64,000 nt of DNA from Escherichia phage 121Q (NC_025447.1); one strand, 5' to 3'; numbered from the stretch's first letter, positions 40,546-57,903 are shown. Program-made: numbers and translations. The notes: generated from the letters alone by a model not told the origin.

Positions 40546-40558
40546 GCACCCGGTGGGC
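40546..40558 (-). repeat. dispersed CTAGCCCACNGGGTGC element copy (reverse orientation)
   Basis: GCACCCGGTGGGC followed by TAG. Confidence 0.5.
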
Positions 40559-41076
40559 TAGAGTCTTTCTCGACTTGATAAAAATATTATAGCAGTACTG
40601 AATTATAAAAGCAATAGCCTGGATGTAAAAAGTTTTAATTAATTTGCTTGTCATCCTGGGGCGTACTATGGTACTATGATTCAGTACTGAGAAAGTGCTA
40701 TGACCTGCTAAGGTGCGGGAGTGTATCCTTTTTAAATTTACTGAATTTTGGGCGTAATTCCGCACCCCCTGGGGTATCCGCTTTCTCGCGTCTATGTAGT
40801 AATTATACGCTTTTTTAGTACTGAGTCAATAGCTAAAAACAAAATAATTGAAAATAATTTAACGCGTTTAAACGGCCCGTAAAGCCCTGGTTAGCTGGTG
40901 GCGGTGCAAATGTATAGCTTAGGTGTATTAATGCGTTAGAATGCGATTGAGGACGTTTTACGGGGTATAGTACTGATTCAGTACTGAATAGTAGTACTGA
41001 AAGATTGTTCTCCCTGGATTGTTCCAGTACTCCTATATAGAAAGAAAACTATTTTAAAAGTATTTGTAGAAAGTAC

Positions 41077-41104
41077 TTGCAAAGTATTGGGAAAGGTGTA
41101 GAAT
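41077..41104 (+). promoter_or_regulatory. sigma70-like early promoter TTGCAA-N16-TAGAAT plus stem-loop
   Basis: AAGTACTTGCAAA -35 block, TAGAAT -10, GTTTTACATC, then ACGGGGGAAACGCTCCCGT hairpin. Confidence 0.55.
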
Positions 41105-41160
41105 GTTTTACATCGAGACGGGGGAAACGCTCCCGTTGCACTTTAAAAGAGATTAAAACG

Positions 41161-41523
41161 ATGGCGACTCAAATCAATACTATCATGCTTAACCTGGTTT
41201 CTTTCCGTGAAGAGATGAAAGATCTTCCCGCTGAGACTGTACGGATTCACATTGCAGCTTATCGGGAATTGATTGCAATGCTGCCGCTTAAGCGTGAACA
41301 GTATGCCGCTACTGCTATGCTCGATGCAATGATCCATAAGATGATCCAGACTGATTTAACGATGGCTTATCAGTACATGGGCGAAATGTTTGCAGTGTAT
41401 AGCAAGCCAGTACCAGGAATGGAAAGTACAGAAGTATTGCACGGCTTAAACTTAAAACAAGATGCATGGGATAATATGCCTCGTTTCCTGGTATGGGCTG
41501 ACAGTGGCAAGATTTACGAATAA
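41161..41523 (+). CDS. hypothetical protein
   Basis: start MATQINTIM after promoter/stem-loop (track ORF starts 41077 inside the promoter). Confidence 0.55.
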   Translation: MATQINTIMLNLVSFREEMKDLPAETVRIHIAAYRELIAMLPLKREQYAATAMLDAMIHKMIQTDLTMAYQYMGEMFAVYSKPVPGMESTEVLHGLNLKQDAWDNMPRFLVWADSGKIYE

Positions 41524-41537
41524 GTTTAATAAAGTAC

Positions 41538-41565
41538 TTGCAAACTAAGTTTAAAAGCGTATAAT
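41538..41565 (+). promoter_or_regulatory. sigma70-like early promoter TTGCAA-N16-TATAAT plus stem-loop
   Basis: TTGCAA 41538, TATAAT 41560, GGGGAATAGTTCCCC hairpin, SD AAGAGGA. Confidence 0.6.
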
Positions 41566-41617
41566 GTTTTATATCAGGTGGGGAATAGTTCCCCACTATA
41601 ATAAAGAGGATTTAAAA

Positions 41618-41857
41618 ATGGCTAAATCAAAAATGTTCTTAGGACACAAAAACAAAACTCATTGGAATGTTTCCTTATGGATTAATAATGACGAATCATT
41701 ATACCGGTTGGCCCAGGACTTTATTGCCGCTAACACTAATCGTAATGATGCGGCCCGTCATATGATGCTATTTTTAGAACAGACTGGACAAGATAAAACT
41801 CCAGACGGCTTTAAGTATAGCACTACTGCGATCCGTGCGGCGATGGTTGGAATGTAA
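41618..41857 (+). CDS. hypothetical protein
   Basis: ATG 41618 after SD AGAGGA. Confidence 0.6.
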   Translation: MAKSKMFLGHKNKTHWNVSLWINNDESLYRLAQDFIAANTNRNDAARHMMLFLEQTGQDKTPDGFKYSTTAIRAAMVGM

Positions 41858-41940
41858 GAGAATAGATTAAAAGTACTATTGCACGGTGATAGTACTTTAT
41901 AATAAAGTTCTTTTTGTACAACAACGATAGGGGTAACAGC

Positions 41941-42207
41941 ATGACTATTACATATTTTGCAACGCGTGAACTTGCTCGGATTGCCGCACGCCAGGACGGG
42001 GCGACGTTTAAAGATATGGGCGTACAATCTGAACGTGGTAAACGTTGGGCCGTAGTAAAGCAAAGTACAGCCCGATCAATTCAGTACTGGCGAGCGGCTT
42101 TAAAGCGTCCTGATAGTGTATCGCGTCGCGTGGTAGAAATAAAGCACGACCGCAAGGGCAATCGCGTTACCGTGTACCGTACTAAAAAGATTGCAGTACT
42201 TGAATAA
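41941..42207 (+). CDS. hypothetical protein, paralog of 53998 gene
   Basis: FATRELARIAARQDGATFKDMG..RWAV and HDRKGNRVTVY blocks shared with 53998-54393 protein. Confidence 0.6.
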   Translation: MTITYFATRELARIAARQDGATFKDMGVQSERGKRWAVVKQSTARSIQYWRAALKRPDSVSRRVVEIKHDRKGNRVTVYRTKKIAVLE

Positions 42208-42214
42208 AAAGTAC

Positions 42215-42242
42215 TTGCAAACTATGTTTAATGGCGTATAAT
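42215..42242 (+). promoter_or_regulatory. sigma70-like early promoter TTGCAA-N16-TATAAT plus stem-loop
   Basis: TTGCAA 42215, TATAAT 42237, GCGGGAACACTTCCCGC hairpin, SD GGAG. Confidence 0.6.
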
Positions 42243-42294
42243 GTTTTACATCGAGAGCGGGAACACTTCCCGCCTATAACCTGGAGTAATAAAA

Positions 42295-42525
42295 ATGACT
42301 AATATGTATATGACTGAAGTTAAAACCGTAAAAGATACTACCACGAATAAAACTACTTACTTACAGCGGATCTGCGGTGTATGGCAACGTATCAGCAAAT
42401 CAAAGTACTTTAAATTAACATCATATGCCAATCGTTCGGATTCATTCAGTACTGAAATAAAAGGTAATAAAGTACACCAATACGGCACTTATTATTATTA
42501 TAGCCTGGACGCGATTGCAGTATAA
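42295..42525 (+). CDS. hypothetical protein
   Basis: 76-aa ORF after promoter/stem-loop/SD. Confidence 0.55.
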   Translation: MTNMYMTEVKTVKDTTTNKTTYLQRICGVWQRISKSKYFKLTSYANRSDSFSTEIKGNKVHQYGTYYYYSLDAIAV

Positions 42526-42608
42526 GTAGTTTACAAATCTTTACAATTGCCAGTATTGACTTATTTTGTCAGTACTGGCATAATGTATCTATTGAAACGA
42601 ACAATTTG

Positions 42609-42621
42609 GCCCACGGGGTGC
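42609..42621 (+). repeat. dispersed CTAGCCCACNGGGTGC element copy
   Basis: GCCCACGGGGTGC followed by GGGAGTGTATCTAT. Confidence 0.5.
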
Positions 42622-42666
42622 GGGAGTGTATCTATAGAAAAAGTAGTTTATTACAGTTACAATTGT

Positions 42667-42678
42667 GCACCCGGTGGG
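42667..42678 (-). repeat. dispersed element copy (reverse orientation)
   Basis: GCACCCGGTGGGTTAG; paired with the 42609 copy as an inverted repeat. Confidence 0.5.
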
Positions 42679-42775
42679 TTAGCTGTTGTCATGGGGTATA
42701 TTATGCCAGTACTTGATAATGCTGTCAATACTTTTTTTTTACTATTCAGTACTGAAAACTATTTTTAAAAAGTAC

Positions 42776-42803
42776 TTGCAAACTATGTTTAAAGGCGTAT
42801 AAT
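42776..42803 (+). promoter_or_regulatory. sigma70-like promoter TTGCAA-N16-TATAAT driving a non-coding element
   Basis: TTGCAA 42776, TATAAT 42798; no ORF before the next promoter. Confidence 0.5.
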
Positions 42804-42809
42804 GTTTTA

Positions 42810-42890
42810 CATCAGGACGGGGAATGAAATAAGTAACTCCCTGTTAAGTAGTCCAGGAGTAAGACATACGAAAACCTCCCCTGATAAAAT
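42810..42890 (+). ncRNA. candidate small RNA or leader element (copy 1)
   Basis: about 80 nt behind a promoter, GGACGGGGA...TCCCCTG closing stem, no ATG-initiated ORF; near-identical copy at 52784-52858. Confidence 0.3.
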
Positions 42891-42893
42891 AGT

Positions 42894-42921
42894 TTGACAA
42901 AGATTTATAAAAGCGTATAAT
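42894..42921 (+). promoter_or_regulatory. sigma70-like promoter TTGACA-N16-TATAAT
   Basis: TTGACA 42894, TATAAT 42916, SD GAGGG before ATG 42954. Confidence 0.6.
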
Positions 42922-42953
42922 ACTTACATCAACTACTGAATGAGGGTTACAAA

Positions 42954-43565
42954 ATGAAAACTATCACTACTACTACTTTCGTTATGGCTTTTTCTGAACT
43001 GAACGCAGAACAACAAACGGCGGCTATCGAACTGGTTCGGGATCGGGAACGTGCAAGTGAGGATAATTTCTTTGCTGAGTCAGTACTGGAATACTATAAA
43101 GAAACAGTACTACCAGAATACGGCATAGATGAAGCTGAATTGCAATACAGTGGTTTTTGGTCGCAAGGTGACGGTGCATCAATCAGTACTGACCACGTTG
43201 ACGCTGAGAAGTTTTTACGCAAGGTTAAGGCGTTAACGAAATATCGTTCCATCCGTCACCTGTTGAACGAAGATGATTTGGAAATGAGTGTAGAACGTTC
43301 CCAATCGCGTTATGCACACGAAAACACGGTAGGCGGTTGCGTTGATACTCGCTACACTGATTTAACTGTAAAACAGGCGGCGTTAGCTGAGGAACTGGAA
43401 AATTTACTGACTGACACGATCCGAGAATTATCTTGTAAGCTGTACCGTGATTTAGAAAATGCTTATGAAGACCAGTTTACTACTGAAAACATTGTAGGAC
43501 TGATTGAGGGTAACGAATATCAATTTAATGTTATCGATGGTGTAGTAGAATCTATCGCATATTAA
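42954..43565 (+). CDS. hypothetical acidic protein (203 aa)
   Basis: long ORF behind consensus promoter. Confidence 0.65.
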   Translation: MKTITTTTFVMAFSELNAEQQTAAIELVRDRERASEDNFFAESVLEYYKETVLPEYGIDEAELQYSGFWSQGDGASISTDHVDAEKFLRKVKALTKYRSIRHLLNEDDLEMSVERSQSRYAHENTVGGCVDTRYTDLTVKQAALAEELENLLTDTIRELSCKLYRDLENAYEDQFTTENIVGLIEGNEYQFNVIDGVVESIAY

Positions 43566-43623
43566 TTCAGTACTGAATCACTGGCGGGGAATGGTTCCCG
43601 CCTATATCCCAGGAGTAAGAGAA

Positions 43624-43860
43624 ATGATCGAACAAATCAAAACTACAACGCCAAACGTAACGGGTACAGTATCACACTTCATTGGTGACGATTCGCGGGG
43701 CGTTCCTTATTGTGCAGTACATGTAAACAAAAATGGCGACTACTGGCTAACGGTTTACGGTTCTTATTCTTTCGGGCGTAGTGCACACCAAAAGATCCTG
43801 GATAAAGTACAACCAACGGGTAAAAATATCACCGCTGAGATGTTTTATAAAAAGCACTAA
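43624..43860 (+). CDS. hypothetical protein
   Basis: ATG 43624 after GGCGGGGAATGGTTCCCGCC stem-loop and SD AGGAG. Confidence 0.6.
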   Translation: MIEQIKTTTPNVTGTVSHFIGDDSRGVPYCAVHVNKNGDYWLTVYGSYSFGRSAHQKILDKVQPTGKNITAEMFYKKH

Positions 43861-43867
43861 AAAGTAC

Positions 43868-43895
43868 TTGCAAAGTAATTAGATTAACGTATAAT
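43868..43895 (+). promoter_or_regulatory. sigma70-like early promoter TTGCAA-N16-TATAAT plus stem-loop
   Basis: TTGCAA 43868, TATAAT 43890, GCGGGAATAGTTCCCGC hairpin. Confidence 0.6.
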
Positions 43896-43945
43896 ACTTT
43901 ATATCGAGAGCGGGAATAGTTCCCGCCTTTACTGAGGATTATCTA

Positions 43946-44230
43946 ATGGGTAAAGTAATTAACTATACAGTACTAAGCAAGTCATTATCTATTAGCCAGT
44001 GCACCGATGGTTTTTGGCTGTACGATGAAACGCGTGGCATGAATTTAGCTATGCAGGAGAAAACTACTGATGCGGCATATCTTAAAGCACTGGAATACTA
44101 CCAGAAGCGTTTAAAGGAAGTAGAAAACGATTATAATAACCTGAAAGCGAAAGTAGATCATTTCGTCGGTCAATTCATTGACGATGACGAGGACGGGCAC
44201 TACTGCGACCGTTGCGGATCTTACAATTGA
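43946..44230 (+). CDS. hypothetical protein with C-terminal CxxC
   Basis: SD TGAGGA; ends HYCDRCGSYN. Confidence 0.6.
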   Translation: MGKVINYTVLSKSLSISQCTDGFWLYDETRGMNLAMQEKTTDAAYLKALEYYQKRLKEVENDYNNLKAKVDHFVGQFIDDDEDGHYCDRCGSYN

Positions 44231-44247
44231 GTACTGAGGATTATCTA

Positions 44248-44451
44248 ATGAGTGATTTAATTAAACGTATCAAAGAGCTTGAAGAAAAAGAATTGCAGTT
44301 GATCGGGTTACGGAATAAAGTATTCCATGATTTAGGTGGCTTCATTAATGCCTGGGATAGTGGCGATCCTGATGCGTTACCTGCTAACCGCCAGGCGATG
44401 ATCAATGATGTGCGTGGTGTCTTTGATTATGTTTTAAAGCAATTAAATTAA
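44248..44451 (+). CDS. hypothetical protein
   Basis: ATG 44248 with the same CTGAGGATTATCTAATG initiation region as the 43946 gene. Confidence 0.6.
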   Translation: MSDLIKRIKELEEKELQLIGLRNKVFHDLGGFINAWDSGDPDALPANRQAMINDVRGVFDYVLKQLN

Positions 44452-44459
44452 AAAAGTAC

Positions 44460-44487
44460 TTGCAATTAGTTTTCAGTACTGTATAAT
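44460..44487 (+). promoter_or_regulatory. sigma70-like early promoter TTGCAA-N16-TATAAT plus stem-loop
   Basis: TTGCAA 44460, TATAAT 44482, GGGGGAAATGGTTCTCCCC hairpin, SD AAGGAG. Confidence 0.6.
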
Positions 44488-44537
44488 AGTTTACATCAAG
44501 GGGGAAATGGTTCTCCCCACTAATAAGGAGTTTTACA

Positions 44538-44759
44538 ATGGCTAATATCACTACTCTTTCCCAGCTTGAAGCACTGGTTAAATCTATGCGGGAACATGCC
44601 GACAATATCGGCGTAGAAGATCCGGCTGTATGTTTTTGCGACGAAATAAATGATGATACGCTCGTCATTGCAGAAGTACAAGACGTTTCTAACTATTCAT
44701 CGCGTTACACTGGCGGCGTAGCAAAGAAAGGTGATTTTTGTTTATATCTTACTAAGTAA
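44538..44759 (+). CDS. hypothetical protein
   Basis: 73-aa ORF after promoter/stem-loop/SD. Confidence 0.6.
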   Translation: MANITTLSQLEALVKSMREHADNIGVEDPAVCFCDEINDDTLVIAEVQDVSNYSSRYTGGVAKKGDFCLYLTK

Positions 44760-44765
44760 TAACCA

Positions 44766-44792
44766 GGGGGATCAAACGATCCCCTTTATTTT
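44766..44792 (+). terminator. intrinsic terminator
   Basis: GGGGGATC-AAAC-GATCCCC hairpin then TTTATTTT. Confidence 0.7.
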
Positions 44793-44824
44793 GCAGTACT
44801 GAATCATTTAATAGACGGATCTAT

Positions 44825-44836
44825 GCACCCTGTGGG
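44825..44836 (-). repeat. dispersed element copy (reverse orientation)
   Basis: GCACCCTGTGGGTTAG inside an about 80-bp block also seen at 42667-42740. Confidence 0.5.
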
Positions 44837-45005
44837 TTAGTGACTATCTCGTCTTTATGTAGGTATTATGCCAGTACTGGATGCAGTTGTCAAGACTTTT
44901 TTTTCAAATACTTTTATATTAAAGTACTTGATAATAGTTTTTAAACGCGTATAATGTTTTACATCTAATCGGGAATACTCCCTAGTACTAACAAAGGATA
45001 TACAA

Positions 45006-45305
45006 ATGAAAACTGCAATCATCGCCCTGGCTTTATCTGTTTCCTCTTTCGCTGTTAACGCTTCCGTTGATGTACAGAAAGAAAAATTCATTCAGTGCAC
45101 TGTTGCAATGACTAACGAGGAAACGGCTGAGATCGTTACCAAATCCCTGGAACTGGCCCCTGCAATGTTTGCTAATGGCCCGTACCATGAAGAAGATGAT
45201 CAGGGTAGCACGACCATCTATTACGATGCAAAAAGTAAACGCGGTTCTGTCACTGTAATGGATACAGAGAAAGTTACATTCACTGGCGTAATTAATTGTT
45301 TATAA
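45006..45305 (+). CDS. secreted small protein, Cys-pair family
   Basis: signal peptide MKTAIIALALSVSSFAVNA; Cys in mature N-terminal region and Cys 2 aa from end. Confidence 0.65.
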   Translation: MKTAIIALALSVSSFAVNASVDVQKEKFIQCTVAMTNEETAEIVTKSLELAPAMFANGPYHEEDDQGSTTIYYDAKSKRGSVTVMDTEKVTFTGVINCL

Positions 45306-45322
45306 TATAGTACTGAATCACT

Positions 45323-45352
45323 AGCCCACTATAAGGAGTGGGCTTTTTTTAT
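45323..45352 (+). terminator. intrinsic terminator
   Basis: AGCCCACT-n6-AGTGGGCT hairpin then TTTTTTT. Confidence 0.75.
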
Positions 45353-45543
45353 TGTAGGATTGTAGTACTGGTATACTTTGAAAATAGTTTTAAAAAAGTA
45401 GTTGACATTACCAGGGAAAAGCGTAGAATGTATTACATCAAGACGGGGAACATTAAGTAGACCGCCAGTAAGTCGAATGAAAAACTGGACACGTCAAACA
45501 AACTTTGATAAACTAACTTAAACTTTAATTGAGGATTTATAAA

Positions 45544-46026
45544 ATGGCTAATGTAAAATCATTTCTGAAAGCACTGATTTCTAACGATACTGTCATTGCT
45601 GCTGAATTGCTGGCTGACCTGGATAATGATACCATGAAAGCAGTACGCAACAATTTTAACATTGCTTACAGTGAAGCGAAAGAACTACAAGCCAAAAAGG
45701 TAGCAGAACTGGAAGAACAGAAAAAAGCCCGTGAAGCAGAACTGCAAGCAACAATAGAAAGTATTCAGGCGGCGGTGTCTGGTTTAGATCTGGAAGTGGT
45801 TATTGAAATGGCACATAAAGCCCTGGCGGTTAAGTACGGTGAAGATAAGCCGGAATCTAAGCCTAAAAAATGGATTCAAGAACGTGTTACGGTTGTCCTT
45901 GATAACGGGGAAGAACATTTGATTCCTGTACGCGGTAACTGCATTGCGGTAGTACTGGATGCTATCAAAGAAAGCGGTATGACTCGCGAGGAATGGATCG
46001 AATCTCACCGCAAAATTGAAGCATAA
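45544..46026 (+). CDS. hypothetical protein, Lys/Glu-rich helical
   Basis: ATG 45544 with SD GAGGA; upstream TTGACA-N17-TAGAAT promoter at about 45407. Confidence 0.6.
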   Translation: MANVKSFLKALISNDTVIAAELLADLDNDTMKAVRNNFNIAYSEAKELQAKKVAELEEQKKAREAELQATIESIQAAVSGLDLEVVIEMAHKALAVKYGEDKPESKPKKWIQERVTVVLDNGEEHLIPVRGNCIAVVLDAIKESGMTREEWIESHRKIEA

Positions 46027-46047
46027 CATTTAAAGTACTGAATCACT

Positions 46048-46074
46048 AGCCCACTTATACAGTGGGCTTTTTTG
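46048..46074 (+). terminator. intrinsic terminator
   Basis: AGCCCACT-n5-AGTGGGCT hairpin then TTTTT; same element as 45323. Confidence 0.75.
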
Positions 46075-46300
46075 TGTCTATAGTATTCCATGCCGTCAGC
46101 ACCTCATAGAATCGATTCTAACGCATTAAACTGATTATCTGATGCATCGCCCTAGCTGGTGGAGTTAAGGCCGTTAGAATGCGATTGAGAGCGTTTAAAG
46201 TATTTTGCAAAAAGTAATAAAAAGTACTTGCACGATTCAGAGATTAGCGTATAATGTTTTACATCAAGGCGAAACACCTTAACTAACTGAGGATATAAAG

Positions 46301-46453
46301 ATGAATACTTATGAACTGGATTGTTTCACGTTACAAGTAATGTCAGTATGCAGCAAGAAAGATTGGTCATCAAAGGAATTTAAAGCAGTTATTGCGTGTG
46401 CAAAACACGGCAAGACTATCAATGAAACGGCATCAATCATTGATAAACTTTAA
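46301..46453 (+). CDS. hypothetical small protein (50 aa)
   Basis: not in ORF track; SD TGAGGA 8 nt before ATG; downstream of TTGCAC...TATAAT promoter. Confidence 0.45.
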   Translation: MNTYELDCFTLQVMSVCSKKDWSSKEFKAVIACAKHGKTINETASIIDKL

Positions 46454-46461
46454 AAAATAGT

Positions 46462-46489
46462 TTGACAATAGTTTTAAGTACTGTATAAT
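46462..46489 (+). promoter_or_regulatory. sigma70-like promoter TTGACA-N16-TATAAT
   Basis: TTGACA 46462, TATAAT 46484. Confidence 0.6.
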
Positions 46490-46522
46490 ATTTTACATCA
46501 ACTACTGAGAAGGATTTAAAAA

Positions 46523-46750
46523 ATGGCTATCATCATCACTTACGTATCTGGCACTACTGGCACTTCTAGCACTGTTGCAGTACTGACCAACAAGAAAGGT
46601 GCGGAACTTCATTCTGCAATGAATACCTGGGCGGTGAATGAGTTCGGTCAGTGGGCTAGTGTAGAATACATTGAAACCTATCAAGTGCCGTCTATTAGCT
46701 TAACTGATTTAGGTGTAGATCGTATCCTTTGCCTGGATGAATTAAACTAA
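46523..46750 (+). CDS. hypothetical protein
   Basis: 75-aa ORF, SD AAGGA. Confidence 0.6.
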   Translation: MAIIITYVSGTTGTSSTVAVLTNKKGAELHSAMNTWAVNEFGQWASVEYIETYQVPSISLTDLGVDRILCLDELN

Positions 46751-46835
46751 AAAGTACTTGCAAAGTAAATCGGATAAAGTATAATACATTACATCAAGGG
46801 GAGAAATGATTCTCCCCACTAAGAGGAAACTAAAA

Positions 46836-51223: not shown

Positions 51224-51252
51224 ATTTTATATCTTAACTGAGGATTGAAATC

Positions 51253-51609: not shown

Positions 51610-51688
51610 TACTTGCAATTAGTTTTAAGTACTGTATAATAGTTTACATGAAGGGGAGAATAGTTCTCCCCACTACAAGGAAAGACAA

Positions 51689-51877
51689 ATGCAAAACTTA
51701 TCAAGTATTTTAGTACAAGATGATTTCGGTAATCCTGGAAGTGCTATCATCGTTCGGGGCAATAAGGCAACGTTTGTTATTGCTGGTGGACCTGTACAGC
51801 GTAGCATTAAAAACAATGCAGTTACAATCAATAATGTTCGCTATCGCTTAGATAAAGAATTGATTCATAAACTTTAA
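51689..51877 (+). CDS. hypothetical protein
   Basis: promoter, GGGGAGAATAGTTCTCCCC stem-loop, SD AAGGAAA. Confidence 0.6.
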   Translation: MQNLSSILVQDDFGNPGSAIIVRGNKATFVIAGGPVQRSIKNNAVTINNVRYRLDKELIHKL

Positions 51878-51962
51878 AAAAGTATTTGACAAAGCATTGT
51901 AGTACTGTATAATAGTTTACATGAAGGGGAGAAATGATTCTCCCCACTAAGAGGAAAGAAAC

Positions 51963-52175
51963 ATGCAAGGTCAACTAATCGTTCGTAAATGGTCTGATAC
52001 TAACGAAAAACCGTGGGATGTTCAATATATCGGACCGGACGGTGTTTCACGTTATCAACCTGGCGTAACGCATAGTACTGAGCAATATGCCGCCGCTCAC
52101 CGCGAACGCCTGTTAGAATCTATGAAACAGGGATTCTGTGAAAAATTCATTCAAGATCATTGGCTGAAAGATTAA
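51963..52175 (+). CDS. hypothetical protein
   Basis: promoter, GGGGAGAAATGATTCTCCCC stem-loop, SD AGAGGAA. Confidence 0.6.
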   Translation: MQGQLIVRKWSDTNEKPWDVQYIGPDGVSRYQPGVTHSTEQYAAAHRERLLESMKQGFCEKFIQDHWLKD

Positions 52176-52194
52176 TATATAAGGAGTACAGCTT

Positions 52195-52287
52195 ATGCAA
52201 ATGAATCCGATGATTGTTGTGTTAGCTGTACTTATGATCATTCATGCCATCGTAGAAGTACTAACACAATCAGGAGTAATACAATGA
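52195..52287 (+). CDS. small hydrophobic peptide (30 aa)
   Basis: not in ORF track; SD AAGGAG 8 nt before ATG. Confidence 0.35.
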   Translation: MQMNPMIVVLAVLMIIHAIVEVLTQSGVIQ

Positions 52288-52454
52288 TCCAAGTAGAATT
52301 ATCAGTACTGAAAGATCTGTTTTATCGGTTAGGCACTACTGGCGAATACCCTAAAGGGGATACTGCTAAACTATACATTGCATTGGATGTATGGCAACGT
52401 AATGAACTGGCTAACGCCTGGCGTAAAGGTAAATCAGAGGGGATTGCAGCATGA
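52284..52454 (+). CDS. hypothetical small protein (56 aa)
   Basis: not in ORF track; ATGA overlap with upstream stop. Confidence 0.4.
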   Translation: MIQVELSVLKDLFYRLGTTGEYPKGDTAKLYIALDVWQRNELANAWRKGKSEGIAA

Positions 52455-52600
52455 AAGAATTTTTATTCGAAGTAGTGTTCCAGGGCGTAGGAAGTAACCA
52501 ACTGATTCGATCAAGTGGTTACAATGTTAACCAGGCATGGAATAACATTAAACAAATGTACCCGAACGCTATCACATATCGCAACCCAAAACAAGTTTAA
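52451..52600 (+). CDS. hypothetical small protein (49 aa)
   Basis: not in ORF track; ATGA overlap; followed by terminator. Confidence 0.4.
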   Translation: MKEFLFEVVFQGVGSNQLIRSSGYNVNQAWNNIKQMYPNAITYRNPKQV

Positions 52601-52614
52601 AAAGAATAAAAAAA

Positions 52615-52640
52615 GGGATTGACTCCGGTCAGTCCCTTTG
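52615..52640 (+). terminator. intrinsic terminator, UCCG-loop variant
   Basis: GGGATTGAC-TCCG-GTCAGTCCC then TTTG; followed by GCTATTATATA. Confidence 0.7.
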
Positions 52641-52666
52641 CTATTATATACGCATAGACAAAAACT

Positions 52667-52679
52667 AGCCCACAGGGTG
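52667..52679 (+). repeat. dispersed CTAGCCCACAGGGTGC element copy
   Basis: ACTAGCCCACAGGGTGCATAAATGTATCTAT. Confidence 0.55.
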
Positions 52680-52783
52680 CATAAATGTATCTATTATATG
52701 CTGGTGGCTAGTACTATCAAGTACTGAAAACTATTTTTAAAAAGTACTTGCATTGTACTTAGAATCAAGTATAATGTTTTACA

Positions 52784-52858
52784 TCAGGACGGGGAACGAA
52801 ACAAGTAACCCCGTTAAGTAGTCCAGGAGTAAGACATACGAAAACCTCCCCTGATAAA
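52784..52858 (+). ncRNA. candidate small RNA or leader element (copy 2)
   Basis: near-identical to 42810-42890; promoter (TTGCAT 52748, TATAAT 52770) upstream; no ORF. Confidence 0.3.
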
Positions 52859-52863
52859 ATAGT

Positions 52864-52891
52864 TTGACAATAGAAATTAAACAAGTATAAT
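52864..52891 (+). promoter_or_regulatory. sigma70-like promoter TTGACA-N16-TATAAT
   Basis: TTGACA 52864, TATAAT 52886, SD AGAGGAA before ATG 52922. Confidence 0.6.
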
Positions 52892-52921
52892 ACTTACATC
52901 AACCACAAAGAGGAATACAAA

Positions 52922-53122
52922 ATGAAACATTTTACTTTCGGTGTAGTAGGCTTTACAGTATCCAGCGGCGTTTATAAATCAGAACGCGGTGCTAAAAATG
53001 CAGCAAGTCGGGCGTATGGTTCACAGCGTGACTTACAGGTCGGTTATATTAGTAACATTAATAACATGTTTATTCCTGTTTCACAGCGTAAAGCGGGTAA
53101 CATGAAATGGGAAACAATTTGA
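52922..53122 (+). CDS. hypothetical protein
   Basis: 66-aa ORF behind consensus promoter. Confidence 0.6.
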   Translation: MKHFTFGVVGFTVSSGVYKSERGAKNAASRAYGSQRDLQVGYISNINNMFIPVSQRKAGNMKWETI

Positions 53123-53131
53123 TAAAATAGT

Positions 53132-53159
53132 TTGACAATAGTTTTTAGTACTGTATAAT
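53132..53159 (+). promoter_or_regulatory. sigma70-like early promoter TTGACA-N16-TATAAT plus stem-loop
   Basis: TTGACA 53132, TATAAT 53154, GTGGGGAATAGTTCCCCAC hairpin. Confidence 0.65.
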
Positions 53160-53211
53160 ATTTTACATCAAGTGGGGAATAGTTCCCCACCTAACAAAGA
53201 GAGAAATTAAA

Positions 53212-53487
53212 ATGCGGATTCTACTGACAGCTAACGAAATCGAGCAAGTACTGACTACTAACCTGGAAGACTGGAAACGTGATGCAGATATCCAGGCGGT
53301 GCAATGGCTCAATGATAAGTTAACGCCGGATGATTTAAGTAAGATTGTAGATCCACAATTCTATGAAGATATTCACGACACGGCTTTAAGCGTCGAGGAT
53401 GTACTTGATAAGCACTACATTGATATTGATTTGCAGGTTTACGGTCGTAAAAACTTTATCACTATTCACGACATTTATAATAATTAA
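53212..53487 (+). CDS. hypothetical acidic protein
   Basis: 91-aa ORF after promoter/stem-loop/SD. Confidence 0.6.
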   Translation: MRILLTANEIEQVLTTNLEDWKRDADIQAVQWLNDKLTPDDLSKIVDPQFYEDIHDTALSVEDVLDKHYIDIDLQVYGRKNFITIHDIYNN

Positions 53488-53574
53488 GTATTGACAAAGT
53501 ATCTTAGTACTGTATAATAGTTTACATCAAGGCAGGGGAATGGTTCCCCTCCTAACTAAAAGAGAGAAATTAAA

Positions 53575-53898
53575 ATGACTATGATCCTTACCCAGAAAGT
53601 AGAAATGAAAATTGTAACTTCCTTTGACATTAAAGTCAATCGGTGGACTGATAGCCACGGCAATACTTACCACTCATGCTACGTGTCTGCATTGATTGGT
53701 GACCGCTGGGAAGACCTGGGACATGAAACCTTTACTTACGGTTACGGTACACAAGGCGAATACACGGGCTTGGAGATCATTAAAGAAACTGTAATAGGTT
53801 TCAACCCGAAAGAGAAAGTACTACACAGAATTGAGGATGAGATCAACAAAGAAATTACAGTTCGTTACTACGATGTAAAACGTAAGAAAGATATGTAA
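53575..53898 (+). CDS. hypothetical protein, paralog of 47365 gene
   Basis: shared NRWTDSHGNTYHSCYVS and FTYGYG blocks; promoter and stem-loop upstream. Confidence 0.65.
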   Translation: MTMILTQKVEMKIVTSFDIKVNRWTDSHGNTYHSCYVSALIGDRWEDLGHETFTYGYGTQGEYTGLEIIKETVIGFNPKEKVLHRIEDEINKEITVRYYDVKRKKDM

Positions 53899-53997
53899 TA
53901 GAATCCATTTAAAGTACTATTTGACATTGCCCAGATAGTACTTTATAATAGACTCTAACTTGTAGTACTAATTAACTTAACTAATAGGATGTACACC

Positions 53998-54393
53998 ATG
54001 ATTACTAAATTCTTCGCTACCCGTGAACAAGCTCGCATCGTTGCCCGTGAAGAAGGTGAAACATTTAAAGACATGGGCAAAGATGCACCGAAAGGACAAC
54101 GCTGGGCGGTACAGTTCAAAGAGATCTCTGATATTGTGAATTCACCTGAGCCTGTACTTACAGCAGCAGAACTAAAGCAAGCTCAAGAACTGGCTGAAGT
54201 ACTGAACGCTCAAGATGACTTTTTGAAAGGTTCTGATATTGAAGTTACAGTTAACGCAAATGCATGGACTCACGCGGATCACCTGGCAAACCTTAAGCGT
54301 CCAAGTGAACTGATTCGTAACCAGAAAGAGATCCGTCATGACCGTAAAGGAAACCGTGTAACAGTATACAGTAAACGCCGCCAGGTTATCTAA
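53998..54393 (+). CDS. hypothetical protein, paralog of 41941 gene
   Basis: ATG 53998 (SD TAGGA); shared FATREQARIVAREEGETFKDMG and HDRKGNRVTVY blocks. Confidence 0.6.
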   Translation: MITKFFATREQARIVAREEGETFKDMGKDAPKGQRWAVQFKEISDIVNSPEPVLTAAELKQAQELAEVLNAQDDFLKGSDIEVTVNANAWTHADHLANLKRPSELIRNQKEIRHDRKGNRVTVYSKRRQVI

Positions 54394-54416
54394 TAACTTT
54401 GCAGTACTAACAACAC

Positions 54417-54442
54417 GGCGGGAATATTTCCCGCCTTTTTTA
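54417..54442 (+). terminator. intrinsic terminator
   Basis: GGCGGGAA-TAT-TTCCCGCC hairpin then TTTTTT. Confidence 0.75.
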
Positions 54443-54455
54443 TAGGATAAACAAA

Positions 54456-54710
54456 ATGATTAAGGTTCAACTATCAAACGATAATGTATTACGGGTACAC
54501 TATAAAGCTCCACAGAGAATCATCACAAAGGCCGTACAGCTTGCTAATGAGTTTATTAATGGTAGTCTATTGCCTAGGAAGTTAAGCAACGGGAAACTAC
54601 GTGTAATCGACGTAGACACTAACAATAGAATAGTGATCGAGAGTACTGGAAAAATTAATCTATATGAACACCAACAATACAATAAAAAAATAAAACTAAT
54701 ATCACGTTGA
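54456..54710 (+). CDS. hypothetical protein
   Basis: 84-aa ORF, SD TAGGA. Confidence 0.55.
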   Translation: MIKVQLSNDNVLRVHYKAPQRIITKAVQLANEFINGSLLPRKLSNGKLRVIDVDTNNRIVIESTGKINLYEHQQYNKKIKLISR

Positions 54711-54763
54711 CAGTACTCAAATGTTTTAGTATTATGTATCTATACCAACACAGGAGAAACAAA

Positions 54764-54982
54764 ATGAAATTATCTAAAATCGAAAAGAAAACTATTGATG
54801 AAGCAGTGAAGCACGGTTATACCTTTCGTAATGATTCACACTTCACCAGTTTTCAACAGGGAAACCGTACCATCAAAAAACTCATTGATAAAGGTTTACT
54901 CACTAAGGTTGATAACGGGAACGGTGTAGAATATCAACCGACAGAAGACGCATTATCACTAAAGAAATATTCTATTATCTAA
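54764..54982 (+). CDS. hypothetical protein, possible winged-helix DNA-binding
   Basis: ATG 54764 after TTGACA...TATTAT promoter and SD AGGAG; winged-helix call is a weak guess from RTIKKLIDKGLLTK. Confidence 0.55.
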   Translation: MKLSKIEKKTIDEAVKHGYTFRNDSHFTSFQQGNRTIKKLIDKGLLTKVDNGNGVEYQPTEDALSLKKYSII

Positions 54983-55039
54983 TTGACAGTACTCAAATGT
55001 TTTAGTACTATGTACGCATACCAACACGGGGAAAACAAA

Positions 55040-55282
55040 ATGATTACTTTAGAAAAACGTATCAAAGAGACTACAACGCTGGTGGAACTGTTAACCGTTC
55101 TTAAATGCCGGGTAACTCCATTCAGTACACCGGACTTTATCAACATGGTGGACGTTAACGGTCGCTATCGTATTGCGGTCGAACAAGGTACGGCAAAAGT
55201 ATTCAGTACTAAAAATACGCGTGAAGTATTCCACGCAGTTCAAGTAAAAAAAGTAGTTGCCATTGATAGTAAAGTACTGTAA
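55040..55282 (+). CDS. hypothetical protein
   Basis: ATG 55040 behind a duplicated copy of the 54711-54763 promoter/leader. Confidence 0.55.
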   Translation: MITLEKRIKETTTLVELLTVLKCRVTPFSTPDFINMVDVNGRYRIAVEQGTAKVFSTKNTREVFHAVQVKKVVAIDSKVL

Positions 55283-55313
55283 TATAGTTTCATTAACTCA
55301 AGGAGTCAACACA

Positions 55314-55898
55314 ATGCGTAACTATACTAAATTCATCCGTTCACTTCATGCAATGGAAACCAACAAAGAGATCCTTTCAGCTTGTCGGTTAGCTGGACTG
55401 GAGATCGTCGGTGCGGGTTCTTCCCGTATTGTATTCGCTTTAAATGATCGGTTAGTGATTAAGGTCGCGAATTGTGATGCGGGTGTAGAACAAAATGAAA
55501 CTGAATGTAAGGTATGGAATTTTTTAGATTATGACCGTCCGCACCTTAAACAGTTCTTTGCCAAGGTGCATATGCATTTATGCGATCCTGATAATCTGCT
55601 TATTGTTATGGATCGTTTGAGTACTGCAAGCAAAGGCAGTGTAAAGCACGTAACCGCATGTAATGAGTTAAAGTACAATATTAAACGTAACACTATTGAA
55701 CGCCATCACCATTTCGCTGATGCTCTCAATCACGTTGATGATACATTATCCACACTAACGATAAGAGATATCAGAAAACAGAATATCGGCCAGGATCGCA
55801 ACGGCTTGATTAAAGTACTTGATTACGGTTTAACCCGCAATATCTGGAATCAGTACTATAAAAAACGTGATGTTAACGCGATAACTATAACACGATAA
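55314..55898 (+). CDS. protein kinase-like protein
   Basis: GAGSSRIVF Gly-rich loop, VIKV lysine, RDIRKQN catalytic-loop-like and VLDYG motifs; SD AAGGAG. Confidence 0.6.
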   Translation: MRNYTKFIRSLHAMETNKEILSACRLAGLEIVGAGSSRIVFALNDRLVIKVANCDAGVEQNETECKVWNFLDYDRPHLKQFFAKVHMHLCDPDNLLIVMDRLSTASKGSVKHVTACNELKYNIKRNTIERHHHFADALNHVDDTLSTLTIRDIRKQNIGQDRNGLIKVLDYGLTRNIWNQYYKKRDVNAITITR

Positions 55899-55912
55899 AA
55901 AAGATTAAAAAA

Positions 55913-55938
55913 GGGATTGACTCCAGTCAGTCCCTTTG
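55913..55938 (+). terminator. intrinsic terminator, variant hairpin
   Basis: GGGATTGACTCCAGTCAGTCCC then TTTG. Confidence 0.65.
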
Positions 55939-55969
55939 CTATTATATATTCATTGAGAGATAACTCACT

Positions 55970-55983
55970 GACCCATAGGGTGC
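55970..55983 (+). repeat. dispersed element copy
   Basis: ACTGACCCATAGGGTGCGGAAGTGTATCTAT. Confidence 0.5.
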
Positions 55984-56122
55984 GGAAGTGTATCTATTAT
56001 ATAAGTATTCAGTACTGAAAACTATTTTATAAAAAGTACTTGCAAACTATCTCAATGAGCGTATAATGTTTTATATCGAGAGGGGGAAATGGTTCTCCCT
56101 GGTACTAAAAGGAATCAAGACG

Positions 56123-56344
56123 ATGGCTACTATGACCTGCGTTCACGCTTCAAATCTTCTGAATGATGCAGCATTTAAAGCAGGTGAAGAATATCAATGC
56201 TATCGGGATGAAAATAAAAAAGTTTTCGTCGTTGATGCTAACGGTTTCCATATTGAATTGCAATCCGGTTTCACTGGCATTGATGGTAAATCTGTATGGG
56301 GCGTCCAGGACGATAACGGCACATATCATTTTAAACGTAATTAA
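56123..56344 (+). CDS. hypothetical protein
   Basis: ATG 56123 after promoter, GGGGGAAATGGTTCTCCC stem-loop and SD AAGGAA. Confidence 0.6.
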   Translation: MATMTCVHASNLLNDAAFKAGEEYQCYRDENKKVFVVDANGFHIELQSGFTGIDGKSVWGVQDDNGTYHFKRN

Positions 56345-56347
56345 GTA

Positions 56348-56375
56348 TTGACAAAGTATATCAGTACTGTATAAT
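56348..56375 (+). promoter_or_regulatory. sigma70-like early promoter TTGACA-N16-TATAAT plus stem-loop
   Basis: TTGACA 56348, TATAAT 56370, GGGGAGAATAGTTCTCCCC hairpin. Confidence 0.65.
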
Positions 56376-56428
56376 AGTTTACATCAAGGGGAGAATAGTT
56401 CTCCCCACCAATAAAAGGAAACAAAATT

Positions 56429-56701
56429 ATGTCCAGCTACTCCGCTACTATGATTATTAAAGATATGAACGGTAATCCTACTTCTGCTGGTGGATCATTT
56501 GGTAACATTAATTTAGATGGGCGGTTATCAATTGAATCAGCCATCAATGCAGCGAAAGAAGTTTTTAAGAATGAATGTACTGTAAGCAAGCTGGATTATA
56601 TGGGCTTCGCTATCGAGAAAACTAATCGTTTTGTGGACTACAAAAAACCACTGATGATTGATACTAACCTGAAAGCAAACGAAGTGGAATACTTATTATG
56701 A
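56429..56701 (+). CDS. hypothetical protein
   Basis: 90-aa ORF, SD AAGGAAA. Confidence 0.6.
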   Translation: MSSYSATMIIKDMNGNPTSAGGSFGNINLDGRLSIESAINAAKEVFKNECTVSKLDYMGFAIEKTNRFVDYKKPLMIDTNLKANEVEYLL

Positions 56702-56889
56702 CAGTAGAAGAAGTTAAAAAAGTACTGGCAGTACTACGCTATCATAATCATTGTAAGGTGAAGAATGATCCTGATTATCTTGATTCATCGCTGGAAGAGG
56801 ATACACTACAAGCAATAAGCCATATGCAAAAAATGCTTAAGCGTATGACCGAAAAGAACAGGCCGGACTATATCGGAAATAAAATTTAA
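56698..56889 (+). CDS. hypothetical protein
   Basis: 63-aa ORF overlapping upstream stop. Confidence 0.55.
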   Translation: MTVEEVKKVLAVLRYHNHCKVKNDPDYLDSSLEEDTLQAISHMQKMLKRMTEKNRPDYIGNKI

Positions 56890-56972
56890 AAAGTACTTGC
56901 ATTGTAAGTAAAACAAAGTATAATGTTTTACATAGGGGGAGATATCCTCCCCCACTAATAAGGAGTACTAAA

Positions 56973-57197
56973 ATGGCTAACTTTGATGAACTGATGCGGG
57001 AAGTAGCTACCCTGGCAGAAGAGAAGAAATCATTTGATTCTATCTATAACACCGCTTACAGTGATTCAGTACTGGCATGTACTCAGGATCAAAAAGATGA
57101 ACTGATCGCCACCTATCATGAAGCATGGAAGTATTACCGCCAATGGGAGAAAGAAGAAAGCGAGTCTACCATCAACGGCATCAATAATCTAATCTAA
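56973..57197 (+). CDS. hypothetical protein
   Basis: promoter, GGGGGAGATATCCTCCCCC stem-loop, SD AAGGAG. Confidence 0.6.
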   Translation: MANFDELMREVATLAEEKKSFDSIYNTAYSDSVLACTQDQKDELIATYHEAWKYYRQWEKEESESTINGINNLI

Positions 57198-57271
57198 AGT
57201 TTTATTTCAGTACTATTGACAATGCGTGATAGTACTGATGTGATAACTTTACTAACTAAAGGGGAAACATA

Positions 57272-57529
57272 ATGGAACAGTTCACACAATATCGGGTAAA
57301 TCCTCAAGCTATGGCCTACGTAGAAGACCATAAAACGTTACCAGTACTAACACCAATTAAAGGCCATATCTATCGTGCTATGCAGTGGAATAACGCCTAT
57401 AATGGCTATAAAGCGGTATCCGCTGCAATGTACTTAGGGGATGGCGAATGGTTTGATCCAAATAATCCTGGTGCACTCGATAGTACTGAAAAAATGACAT
57501 GGGCCGACTATATCGAAGATATCTCATAA
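57272..57529 (+). CDS. hypothetical protein
   Basis: 85-aa ORF behind TATTGACA...GATGTGATAACT promoter-like block. Confidence 0.55.
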   Translation: MEQFTQYRVNPQAMAYVEDHKTLPVLTPIKGHIYRAMQWNNAYNGYKAVSAAMYLGDGEWFDPNNPGALDSTEKMTWADYIEDIS

Positions 57530-57617
57530 AAACTATTTGACAGTACTACAAGATAATGTATAATGTTTTACATAGAGCGGGGGAATAGTTCTCCCGCACC
57601 TTTAGGAGTAAAACATT

Positions 57618-57818
57618 ATGTCAATCGCTAACGAATTGGTTGCAGTACTGAATGAAGCAAAAGCCAACTGCATCGATGTACAGATCAAAGAGCTTGGCAA
57701 TGGCTTGATCGGCTGTACTTGTACAGTGCAAACGGCTACCGATTATCGGGAAGTGGAATCACTCGAATCACTGGTACGGTATATTAAAATCCTGGTAGAA
57801 GATTGGAGAATCATCTAA
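57618..57818 (+). CDS. hypothetical protein
   Basis: promoter, GCGGGGGAATAGTTCTCCCGC stem-loop, SD TAGGAG. Confidence 0.6.
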   Translation: MSIANELVAVLNEAKANCIDVQIKELGNGLIGCTCTVQTATDYREVESLESLVRYIKILVEDWRII

Positions 57819-57837
57819 CAAAAAAGAATAAAAAAAG

Positions 57838-57863
57838 GGATTGACTCCGGTCAGTCCCTTTGC
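57838..57863 (+). terminator. intrinsic terminator, UCCG-loop variant
   Basis: GGGATTGACTCCGGTCAGTCCC then TTTG. Confidence 0.7.
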
Positions 57864-57889
57864 TATTATATACGCATAGACAAAAACTA

Positions 57890-57903
57890 GCCCACTGGGT
57901 GCA
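57890..57903 (+). repeat. dispersed element copy
   Basis: ACTAGCCCACTGGGTGCAGAGAAGTATCTGT. Confidence 0.5.

Follow-up and report, generated by a model that had tools for sequence, protein, structure and literature searches.

We analyzed a stretch of 64,000 nucleotides from Escherichia phage 121Q (NC_025447.1; hereafter the window, with positions counted from its first letter), in which an asymmetric motif, CTAGCCCAC-N-GGGTGC…GTATCTAT, recurs in both orientations. The motif is the conserved core of a predicted transcript, a folded RNA of about 52 bases. As read from the sequence, this structured, non-coding RNA module is fused to early promoters and is widespread in RaK2-like jumbo phages. These phages (PBECO4, 121Q, phAPEC6, RaK2, GAP32, and CBB) are candidate agents of phage therapy, yet no function is known for about 80% of their genes and, to our knowledge, their early program has not been studied. 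The promoters that the element marks are the strongest ones for host polymerase in what is likely the first-expressed region of the genome. The element is also among the best-conserved features of an otherwise fast-evolving region, and it is non-coding; it therefore provides a defined, mutable 52-nt handle on how infection starts, one that allows clear disruptive and compensatory mutations.

A repeated promoter-plus-element module

The exact core CCCAYNGGGTGC occurs nine times in the window (40546−, 42610+, 42667−, 44825−, 48980+, 50664+, 52669+, 55972+, and 57891+), compared with 0.00 occurrences expected from 100 dinucleotide shuffles, and a 28-nt pattern that includes the tail retrieves the identical nine sites, again with 0.00 expected. 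The spacer within the core is a single nucleotide of any kind, and a pattern with a 4-nt spacer matches nothing. GTATCTAT alone occurs 10 times versus 4.2 expected, with four of these occurrences forming the tail of a copy. When a covariance model was run over the window with filters off, 11 matches were obtained, all between 40.5 and 57.9 kb and none elsewhere in the 64 kb; the weakest is 40679–40740 (+; E = 0.048), and the copy at 40762 was recovered as a diverged member (CCCCAGGGGGTGC). The nine exact cores and the location of the model matches thus confirm the element as real and its occurrence as strongly non-random, with no copy outside the terminal repeat described below.

A preliminary description of this DNA had listed ten copies between 40546 and 57890 and had made its case depend on enrichment beyond chance. 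A copy is present at every one of the ten coordinates, a degenerate eleventh can be added, and the enrichment is borne out by the shuffles. The 17-mer that was taken there as the repeated unit stands as the core; the true unit is longer, a module of about 100 nt composed of a promoter and the ~52-nt transcribed element (repeat families D13–D15 and I1). Outside this module the flanks are unrelated between copies, and the copies are therefore not by-products of larger gene duplications, which disposes of the concern that the motif might occur only inside longer duplicated blocks.

Association with strong early promoters

In every window copy, the core is preceded, at a distance of about 26 nt, by the −10 box of a strong promoter that reads in the same direction. 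Across 16 loci, a predicted promoter scoring at least 9 of 12 was found upstream of 101 of the 106 distinct copies. TTGACA or TTGACT is present in 89 of these 106, a 17-nt spacer in 84, and a TG extension in 69, and the −10 box ends six bases before a conserved CA, so that the A is the predicted +1. Because the element begins at this position, it would constitute the first ~52 nt of a transcript. Two promoter types are found in the window. The first is TTGACA-N17-TGgCATAAT. In the second, the stem of a terminator-like hairpin (AAAGGGATTGACTCCGGTCAGTCCCTTT) holds the −35 box and the T-run leads into TGcTATTAT; this arrangement of AAAGGGATTGACTCCGGTCAGTCCCTTT followed by TGcTATTAT occurs at 48918, 52612, 55910, and 57834, and the identical design is present in other genera.

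All 115 copies found by the model are oriented in the direction of transcription from the adjacent promoter, which gives substance to the earlier view that the element is asymmetric and its orientation meaningful. Its placement between a terminator and the next promoter, also proposed earlier, was half right: the supposed terminator hairpin itself holds the −35 box of the element's own strong promoter. About two thirds of the copies are sense with respect to the neighboring genes; the remainder are antisense, ending at a bidirectional terminator or lying in convergent pairs. Downstream of sense copies, the next gene's own standard promoter follows after a further 70–100 nt, with no conserved reading frame after the element. 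For solitary antisense copies, the terminator hairpin of the upstream gene lies 40–45 nt after the motif, as it does in other phages. The combination that marks a small-RNA gene, namely its own promoter, an intrinsic terminator, and no open reading frame (ORF), is found for copy 6 of the window and, in related phages, at L002 10908, L054 5020 and 11998, and L055 10245 (L numbers denote loci), and is lacking in sense copies.

Predicted RNA architecture

From 5′ to 3′, the predicted fold comprises hairpin P1, a 4-nt linker (NUAR), hairpin P2, GC, five purine-rich bases, and a single-stranded box. P1 is a 5′-terminal hairpin with a variable, covarying stem and a purine-rich loop; its variants include GCCG-GAGAAA-CGGC, GCCA-GAGAAA-UGGC, GGAG-GCGAAA-CUCC, GGAA-GCGAAA-UUCC, UGGC-AGAUAA-GCCG, GCA-AGAACAA-UGC, and ACCAC-AGAGCAA-GUGGU, and in about 29 copies it is reduced. 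P2 is a near-invariant hairpin, (A/G)CCC-AYN-GGGU. The box reads UGUAUCUAU or UCCGUCUAU, with the family consensus U-N-Y-R-U-C-Y-A (mostly UGUAUCUA or UCCGUCUA). Conservation stops about 26 nt past the start of P2, and no helices beyond these two ~4-bp hairpins were found within the ~52 nt.

Support for P1 was obtained in two ways. In a model-free register test, a 4-nt linker with a 6-nt loop gave 4/4 P1 pairs in 28 copies representing 12 different stem sequences, and other registers mostly gave 0–2 such copies, the neighboring ones giving 14 (7-nt loop) and 6 (3-nt linker). In the model-based alignment, each of the four P1 pairs shows 28–42 two-sided changes, 93.7% of the cells are paired, and the covariation score is 0.367 versus 0.123 for shuffles, none of 500 reaching it, and no more than 0.056 with slid partners. 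Since the covariance alignment was fitted to the structure, the register test is the cleaner evidence. For P2, 59 copies close the stem with A-U and 47 with G-U, a CCU/AGG double change is present in two copies of the alignment and, by eye, in the weak copy at 40679–40740, and four copies keep an intact stem beneath a 4-nt loop (UCAA or UUUA); RNAalifold predicts this hairpin unaided. No pairing partner for the tail was detected in a mutual-information scan or a leader/tail complementarity test. A helix or pseudoknot of the tail (GUAUCU) with the 5′ leader or the P1 loop (AGAUA) is plausible in single folds and was rejected: the scan gave no covariation, and complementarity was 9.46 for cognate versus 9.53 for shuffled pairs (−4.08 versus −3.83 kcal/mol).

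Because P1 covaries and the P2 stem is kept through double changes, changes of loop size, and A-U/G-U alternation, recognition as RNA is favored, and the element is very probably a transcribed, structured RNA. A regulator-binding site, one of the roles first suggested for it, may therefore still apply in the form of RNA and is disfavored as duplex DNA. In the duplex version, P2 and the tail would form an operator spanning roughly +25 to +50, where a repressor of phage or host origin would act to block these very strong promoters after the early phase. The fixed position relative to the promoter, the short palindrome of the ACCC-N3-GGGT core, and a tail conserved in sequence without structural conservation would all suit such a site. 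However, the tolerated 4-nt loops alter the spacing of its half-sites, P2 shows symmetric double changes and an alternating closing pair, and all 115 copies keep one orientation relative to transcription, so that we hold an operator to be quite improbable.

P1 and the linker resemble the 5′ hairpin of the generic gene leaders in the same region (families D1–D3), and P2 stands where these have their ribosome-binding site. The element-specific part is thus P2 plus the tail, and the layout suggests an origin of the module in a PeSL-type cassette at gene starts, as known from T4-type phages (PMC4122927). The same position invites a translational reading, in which GGGUG, often followed by GGAG, would be a ribosome-binding site five bases 5′ of RUG UAU CUA UAG and the element a 5′ stabilizer or a minigene like lambda bar (Met-Tyr-Leu-stop). 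P2 does occupy the place of the ribosome-binding site of ordinary cassettes, and AUG, GUG, or UUG stands at +16 in 52 of 110 copies, with Met-Tyr-Leu-stop in 16. Yet about 30 copies have AUC or GUC at that place (the UCCGUCU tail class, which is conserved across genera), and P2 itself ties up the GGG of the supposed ribosome-binding site. We regard a ribosome-binding leader or minigene as very improbable; a Met-Tyr-Leu-stop mini-ORF as such was rejected, given a start codon in only 52 of 110 copies and an unconserved peptide and stop.

Genomic setting and distribution among relatives

The window derives from a RaK2-like jumbo coliphage of the genus Asteriusvirus. By megablast, its 40–58 kb segment matched 137 phage records, chiefly E. 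coli jumbo phages of ~350–380 kb, with fEgEco12, vB_Ec-M-J, PBECO4, G17, and phAPEC6 among the Asteriusvirus matches; in records that start at the physical genome end, the match to the window begins at about position 550. Positions 1–21525 (21.5 kb) of Escherichia phage vB_Ec-M-J are annotated as "Direct Terminal Repeats", and BLAST against this reference places the predicted direct terminal repeat (DTR) of the window at 39458 to ~59640. The DTR is about 20 kb in size and contains every copy of the element, and at its right edge, ~59.7 kb, gene style and the density of the hexamer AGTACT shift. The BLAST places are roughly doubled in records with both terminal repeats versus those with one. 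The DTR holds ~50 tiny early genes (ORFs of 45–200 aa), nearly each with its own promoter of the sigma-70 type; its promoter-like sites number 105 versus 67 expected, and 12 of them are perfect TTGACA-N16/17-TATAAT. For most of these genes, the promoter lacks the element.

The module is present in every RaK2-like phage examined, the 115 model matches coming from 16 sources in five or more genera with 8–13 per repeat. Besides Asteriusvirus, its carriers include Klebsiella phage fENko-Kae01 and Salmonella phage Munch (Munch/Kae01-like), RaK2 and Muenster (Alcyoneusvirus), Pectobacterium phage CBB and Cronobacter phage GAP32 (Mimasvirus), Erwinia phage Hallingskeid, and three IMG/VR jumbo contigs, and the host genera are Escherichia, Klebsiella, Salmonella, Cronobacter, Pectobacterium, and Erwinia. 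For five of the loci the repeat is annotated or was mapped; the ~104 kb of repeat there contain 50 copies, compared with none over ~70 kb of DNA alongside. Every genus has convergent pairs, whose motif starts are 68–86 nt apart, and the genes upstream of solitary antisense copies are non-homologous between genera.

The evidence does not support a recombination or homing site, a role that the preliminary description had entertained: the element has no consistent nuclease neighbor, its position relative to the transcription start is fixed, and its structure is conserved. An HNH endonuclease gene directly adjoins a copy in Munch (L003 13730–14274) and in Hallingskeid (L057 2457–2983); with one copy per ~2 kb, this adjacency may be chance. 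The further suggestion that the element is part of a mobile regulatory cassette came close, in that the copies sit in PeSL-like terminator/promoter cassettes (PMC4122927). Taken to its full extent, it would make the module a selfish or recombinogenic cassette of the PeSL type, conserved through spread by homologous or site-specific recombination and not for RNA function. The terminator stem-loop (A3-4 G3 - loop - C3 T3-4) with its sigma-70-like promoter is indeed PeSL architecture (PMC4122927), and the copies lie amid fast-evolving orphan genes, in both orientations and beside non-homologous genes. Nevertheless, the same P2-plus-tail, and even the same P1 classes, recur across five or more genera at stable copy number, the RNA helices are maintained by compensatory changes, and PeSLs end in a ribosome-binding site and start codon, which the element modules do not; mobility as the source of the conservation is accordingly improbable.

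Searches for known families identified no counterpart. Rfam 15 gave no match at gathering scores over the whole window, and a permissive E-value search of 40–60 kb gave 4 weak matches, none overlapping a copy. With E values up to 10 allowed, blastn of the 50-nt consensus gave no match in 5,426 complete E. coli genomes, a search that detects only similarities of roughly 20 nt or more; host mimicry and, within the same ~20-nt limit, mimicry of a CRISPR repeat (an RNA anti-CRISPR) were rejected on this basis. The covariance model did not match any of 100 unrelated loci that hold the exact 15-mer core, and exact-core matches in bacterial or unrelated viral contigs, none of them recovered by the model, were dismissed as chance single matches. 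Neither a tRNA nor a tmRNA was found. The literature on transcription in Asteriusvirus, RaK2, CBB, and phAPEC6, as far as our incomplete coverage extends, contains promoter predictions only and does not describe the element; papers on CBB, phAPEC6, PA5oct, and their relatives report RpoD-like promoters without mention of it. The modules thus represent a candidate RNA family of more than 100 members without a catalogued match, for which, given this coverage, an earlier description is possible.

Several further observations were made in the relatives and database contigs. An isolated GTAGCCCACTGGGTGC, the P2 core without the rest of the element, lies at 13–29 (minus) of Klebsiella phage Muenster (L054), 17 nt from the left genome terminus as defined by PhageTerm. 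In several other genera, a Fur-box-like palindrome, AATGAT(A/T)ATCATT, is centered in convergent pairs and also occurs near the left end of the repeat (L002 925 and 7194; L003 5761; L006 2825 and 8083; L013 915–1301; L047 6094; L054 796–2443; L057 19381 and 19919); the window has no match to it at one mismatch or fewer and 19 sites with two mismatches. Unrelated high-GC IMG/VR contigs (L004, L012, L014, L022, L025, L035, L043, and L052) carry dense (A)CCCACTGGGTGC arrays with 16–27-bp spacing that resemble the iterons of some unrelated group of phages or plasmids; as they have no promoter context and no model match, the common 12-mer is probably a coincidence.

Proposed function

We propose that each promoter-plus-element unit is an autonomous module and that the same RNA head would be produced in three settings: solitary antisense copies would give a stand-alone RNA of ~100 nt that ends at a bidirectional terminator, other copies would be transcribed in convergent pairs, and sense copies would supply the first part of an early mRNA. 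Each of the two terminal repeats carries about 11 such modules, which the host polymerase would fire before any phage protein is made; from this we postulate an abundant immediate-early family of small RNAs. Through their common P2 and tail, these RNAs would bind a conserved partner and so titrate or redirect it. The partner could be present throughout the Enterobacterales, either as a host protein or as RNA polymerase itself, or it could be a conserved protein of the phages; end protection would mainly fall to P1 and, where present, the 3′ terminator hairpin. The occurrence of the same P2 and tail in more than 100 copies across hosts, about one third of them antisense or convergent with unrelated neighbors, fits such an autonomous RNA head. 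As precedent we count the related jumbo phage PA5oct, in which two highly transcribed, ORF-less RNAs map to the terminal repeat (PMC7318152). On these grounds, we tentatively favor an autonomous, multi-copy family of immediate-early small or leader RNAs that would bind a conserved partner through P2-plus-tail.

Several points weigh against this proposal. Transcription starts, RNA ends, and abundance are predictions from sequence. Six of the 11 window copies are sense and have no terminator before the next promoter and gene, so that the element there would be an mRNA leader and not a discrete small RNA. P2 is almost invariant, and its direct covariation support is consequently thin, consisting of two alignment sequences and one weak copy. 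As P1 resembles ordinary leaders, its covariation shows selection on the RNA 5′ end in general and is hardly informative on what P2 and the tail do specifically. Pfam returned only domains of unknown function for 20 of the ~50 predicted repeat-encoded proteins, giving no clue to a partner. Finally, a start at +1 and a two-hairpin layout are equally expected of a cis-acting element like the put sites of phage HK022.

Such cis-acting control of transcript elongation, as by HK022 put or by nut, would have the nascent two-hairpin RNA stay on its own polymerase and render it resistant to pausing or termination across the terminator-rich early region; with the opposite sign, it could equally provide a handle for later shut-off of early transcription. 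Like putL (PMC9378689), the element starts at +1 to +3 of a strong early promoter, and it has two hairpins plus a conserved single-stranded box. At first synthesis no phage protein could take part, and all hosts have an enterobacterial polymerase. Sense copies stand directly after a promoter-fused terminator and ahead of more genes and terminators, and their reading into genes from the start of the strongest host-type promoters fits action in cis. On the other hand, about a third of the copies oppose genes, meeting a terminator 40–45 nt on or another copy, where processive read-through makes little sense; the stems are only ~4 bp, compared with the two long stem-loops in ~70 nt of put (PMC9378689); no boxA, boxB, or ops sequence adjoins the copies; and most genes have a promoter of their own without the element. 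We consider elongation control in cis rather unlikely, but it is the main rival to our proposal.

For the trans-acting RNA family that we favor, a particular role as decoy can be envisaged. Host RNA polymerase would make large amounts of the RNA within the first minutes of infection, and this multi-copy immediate-early decoy, a new class of RNA particular to RaK2-like phages, might use its invariant hairpin and tail to sequester a conserved enterobacterial protein in the service of anti-defense or host takeover; conceivable targets are defense sensors, ribonucleases, RNA chaperones, and components of the transcription machinery. From the sequence patterns we rate this as a possibility with the balance against it; if true, it would extend RNA-based host takeover or anti-defense to jumbo phages. 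Two other targets were rejected. Antisense regulation of a specific upstream gene is at odds with upstream genes that are non-homologous between genera, and for pairing to the 790 loop of 16S rRNA, at the site of primer 806R and with a hand-entered 16S sequence, the duplex energies equaled those of shuffled controls and the best site was inconsistent.

Individual copies in the window

Copy 1 (40522–40629, minus) has its promoter at 40629–40602 by promoter scan and its element at 40581–40522 (56.2 bits in the model), with P2 CCCACCGGGTGC at 40557–40546 and the tail variant UACGCCCAAAAUUC. Copy 2 (40648–40740, plus) is weak and diverged: a promoter-like TTGTCA-18-TACTAT at 40648–40677 precedes the element at 40679–40740 (E = 0.048), in which P2 is ACCU-GCUA-AGGU, followed by GC, GGGAG, and UGUAUCC. 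It is convergent with copy 3 (40738–40829, minus), also diverged, whose promoter is at 40829–40802 (TTGACT-16-TATAAT) and whose element is at 40797–40738 (P2 CCCCAGGGGGTGC). Copy 4 (42556–42645, plus; promoter 42556–42584, TTGACT-17-TGgCATAAT; element 42585–42645) and copy 5 (42643–42728, minus; promoter 42728–42700, TTGACA-17-TGgCATAAT; element 42691–42643) form a second convergent pair, with P2 starts 68 nt apart and a pair fold of −32.6 kcal/mol (z = −4.0). Copy 6 (44765–44893, minus) is a solitary antisense copy with its promoter at 44893–44865 and its element at 44860–44801; its predicted stand-alone RNA of ~100 nt ends at the bidirectional terminator hairpin of the upstream gene (44786–44765).

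The remaining copies are all on the plus strand. In copy 7 (48918–49015), the stem of the terminator hairpin at 48918–48945 holds the −35 box TTGACT, the extended −10 box TGcTATTAT ends at 48953, and the element (48956–49015; 66.2 bits) is followed by a gene promoter, TTGCAA-16-TATAAT, at 49058–49085 and the gene at 49139–49477. Copy 8 (50607–50699) has a promoter at 50607–50635 (TTGACA-17-TGgCATAAT) and its element at 50640–50699. Copies 9, 10, and 11 each start with a terminator/promoter hairpin: that of copy 9 (52612–52704) is at 52612–52639, with the −10 end at 52647 and a short-P1 element extending to 52704; that of copy 10 (55910–56007) is at 55910–55937, with the −10 end at 55945 and an element at 55948–56007 that has the top model score in the window (71.8 bits); and that of copy 11 (57834–57926) is at 57834–57861, with the −10 end at 57869 and a short-P1 element extending to 57926. 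In addition, a degenerate remnant of the element (CCTAGGGTTACTACGCCCAAAATCC) is found at ~40160–40200. Intrinsic terminators at 45323–45344, 46048–46068, and 50306–50330 have the stem AGCCCAC...GTGGGCT and have the string cACTAGCCCAC in common with the element, which could reflect common ancestry or chance.

Other features of the terminal repeat

About 20 copies of a standard early-gene cassette lie at 41056–58800 (for example, 46749–46829 and 51877–51957). In order, the cassette consists of AAAAAGTACTTGCAA-N16-TATAAT, a start at TTACATCAAG, a hairpin in the 5′ untranslated region (GGGGAGAAnnGTTCTCCCC), ACTAA, the ribosome-binding site GAGGAAA, and ATG, a layout similar to that of PeSL cassettes in T4-type phages. 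Where automatic ORF calls start within this standard leader, as some do (MVLP..., MILP...), their length is probably overestimated.

No hexamer in the whole window is nearly as over-represented as AGTACT, which has 271 sites versus 21.6 expected (12.5-fold). Usually in the form cAGTACTg, it is densest at 39400–59700. It occupies promoter spacers and abuts the −35 box of standard promoters on the 5′ side (AAAAAGTACTTGCAA), and two sites are often 20–35 bp apart; it is ~7-fold enriched within long ORFs at 20–39 kb and nearly gone at 59.7–63.5 kb. This pattern suggests a genome-wide signal for protein binding or modification.

Near the left end of the repeat, 750–900 bp inside it, an iteron-like array at 40190–40350 contains ~12 short repeats (CTAGATGGCT, CTGGATGGCT, and TAGACGGCT) at a spacing of roughly 10–11 bp, making it a candidate origin or binding array for a packaging protein. 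Just outside the predicted boundary at 39458, CAGTAGTGAT occurs three times in tandem at 39360–39400, surrounded by a non-coding stretch of ~2 kb without ORFs (38700–40900) in which there are further leftward promoters (for example, 40488–40460).

Comparison with known systems

The PeSLs of T4-type phages likewise combine a terminator stem-loop (A-run, G3, loop, C3, T-run) with a near-consensus sigma-70 early promoter and are dispersed among orphan early genes (PMC4122927, PMC2839356), and such a stem-loop adjoining a sigma-70-like early promoter among orphan genes is what we find here. The PeSL stem-loop, however, lies upstream of the promoter, whereas in the element modules the −35 box is inside the stem, and the PeSL ends in a ribosome-binding site and start codon, in place of which the transcribed part of the element consists of the non-coding P1, P2, and tail. 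REP and BIME sequences are also short dispersed intergenic repeats in both orientations, often as inverted pairs; they differ in that REPs are without promoters and depend on RAYT transposases, whereas the element is mostly non-palindromic and tied to a transcription start. The only inverted repeats found, of the kind that would define a REP, BIME, or MITE, were whole modules facing each other, and no transposase or RAYT was detected among the 20 repeat-encoded proteins scanned or in the annotations of related repeats.

Small RNAs that occur as multi-copy siblings, such as Qrr, or as protein sponges, such as CsrB/C, are a well-known type. Like the modules, they are paralogous genes with one common functional segment and their own promoters, some with an intrinsic terminator; the element differs in having no conserved GGA or Hfq-type motif, and most of its sense copies have no terminator. 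The RNAs ncRNA001 and ncRNA002 of PA5oct are likewise non-coding and belong to the early-expressed terminal repeat of a related jumbo phage reliant on host RNA polymerase (PMC7318152). They are single-copy and 236–451 nt long (PMC7318152), and ncRNA001, the one compared, has no similarity to the element.

Among antiterminators, lambda nut and those of rrn operons share with the element a small purine-loop hairpin and a conserved single-stranded box in a promoter-proximal transcript, although the order and sequences differ and no N-like protein was identified. Neither a boxA consensus (CGCUCUUA or UGCUCUUUAACAA) nor a boxB-like hairpin adjoins any copy, and the RfaH ops element GGCGGTAGCGTG has only two matches with 2 mismatches, both within genes and away from the copies. 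The HK022 putL and putR sites are likewise cis-encoded RNAs with two stem-loops at the very start of phage early transcripts made by the host polymerase (PMC9378689). For both put and the element, synthesis needs no phage protein, and a position directly downstream of an early promoter for the host polymerase was found in 101 of 106 copies (with the start predicted). Compared by description only, put measures ~70 nt and folds into two long stem-loops, stem II and a stem I that contains a triplex (PMC9378689), and it occurs twice per genome and is always sense to the operon, whereas the element has ~4-bp hairpins in ~52 nt, a single-stranded box, and 8–13 copies per repeat, a third of them antisense or convergent. 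The put RNA suppresses pausing and termination in cis via the beta-prime zinc-binding domain, without protein factors; if the RNA described here binds RNA polymerase, it would represent a second, unrelated solution to protein-free elongation control.

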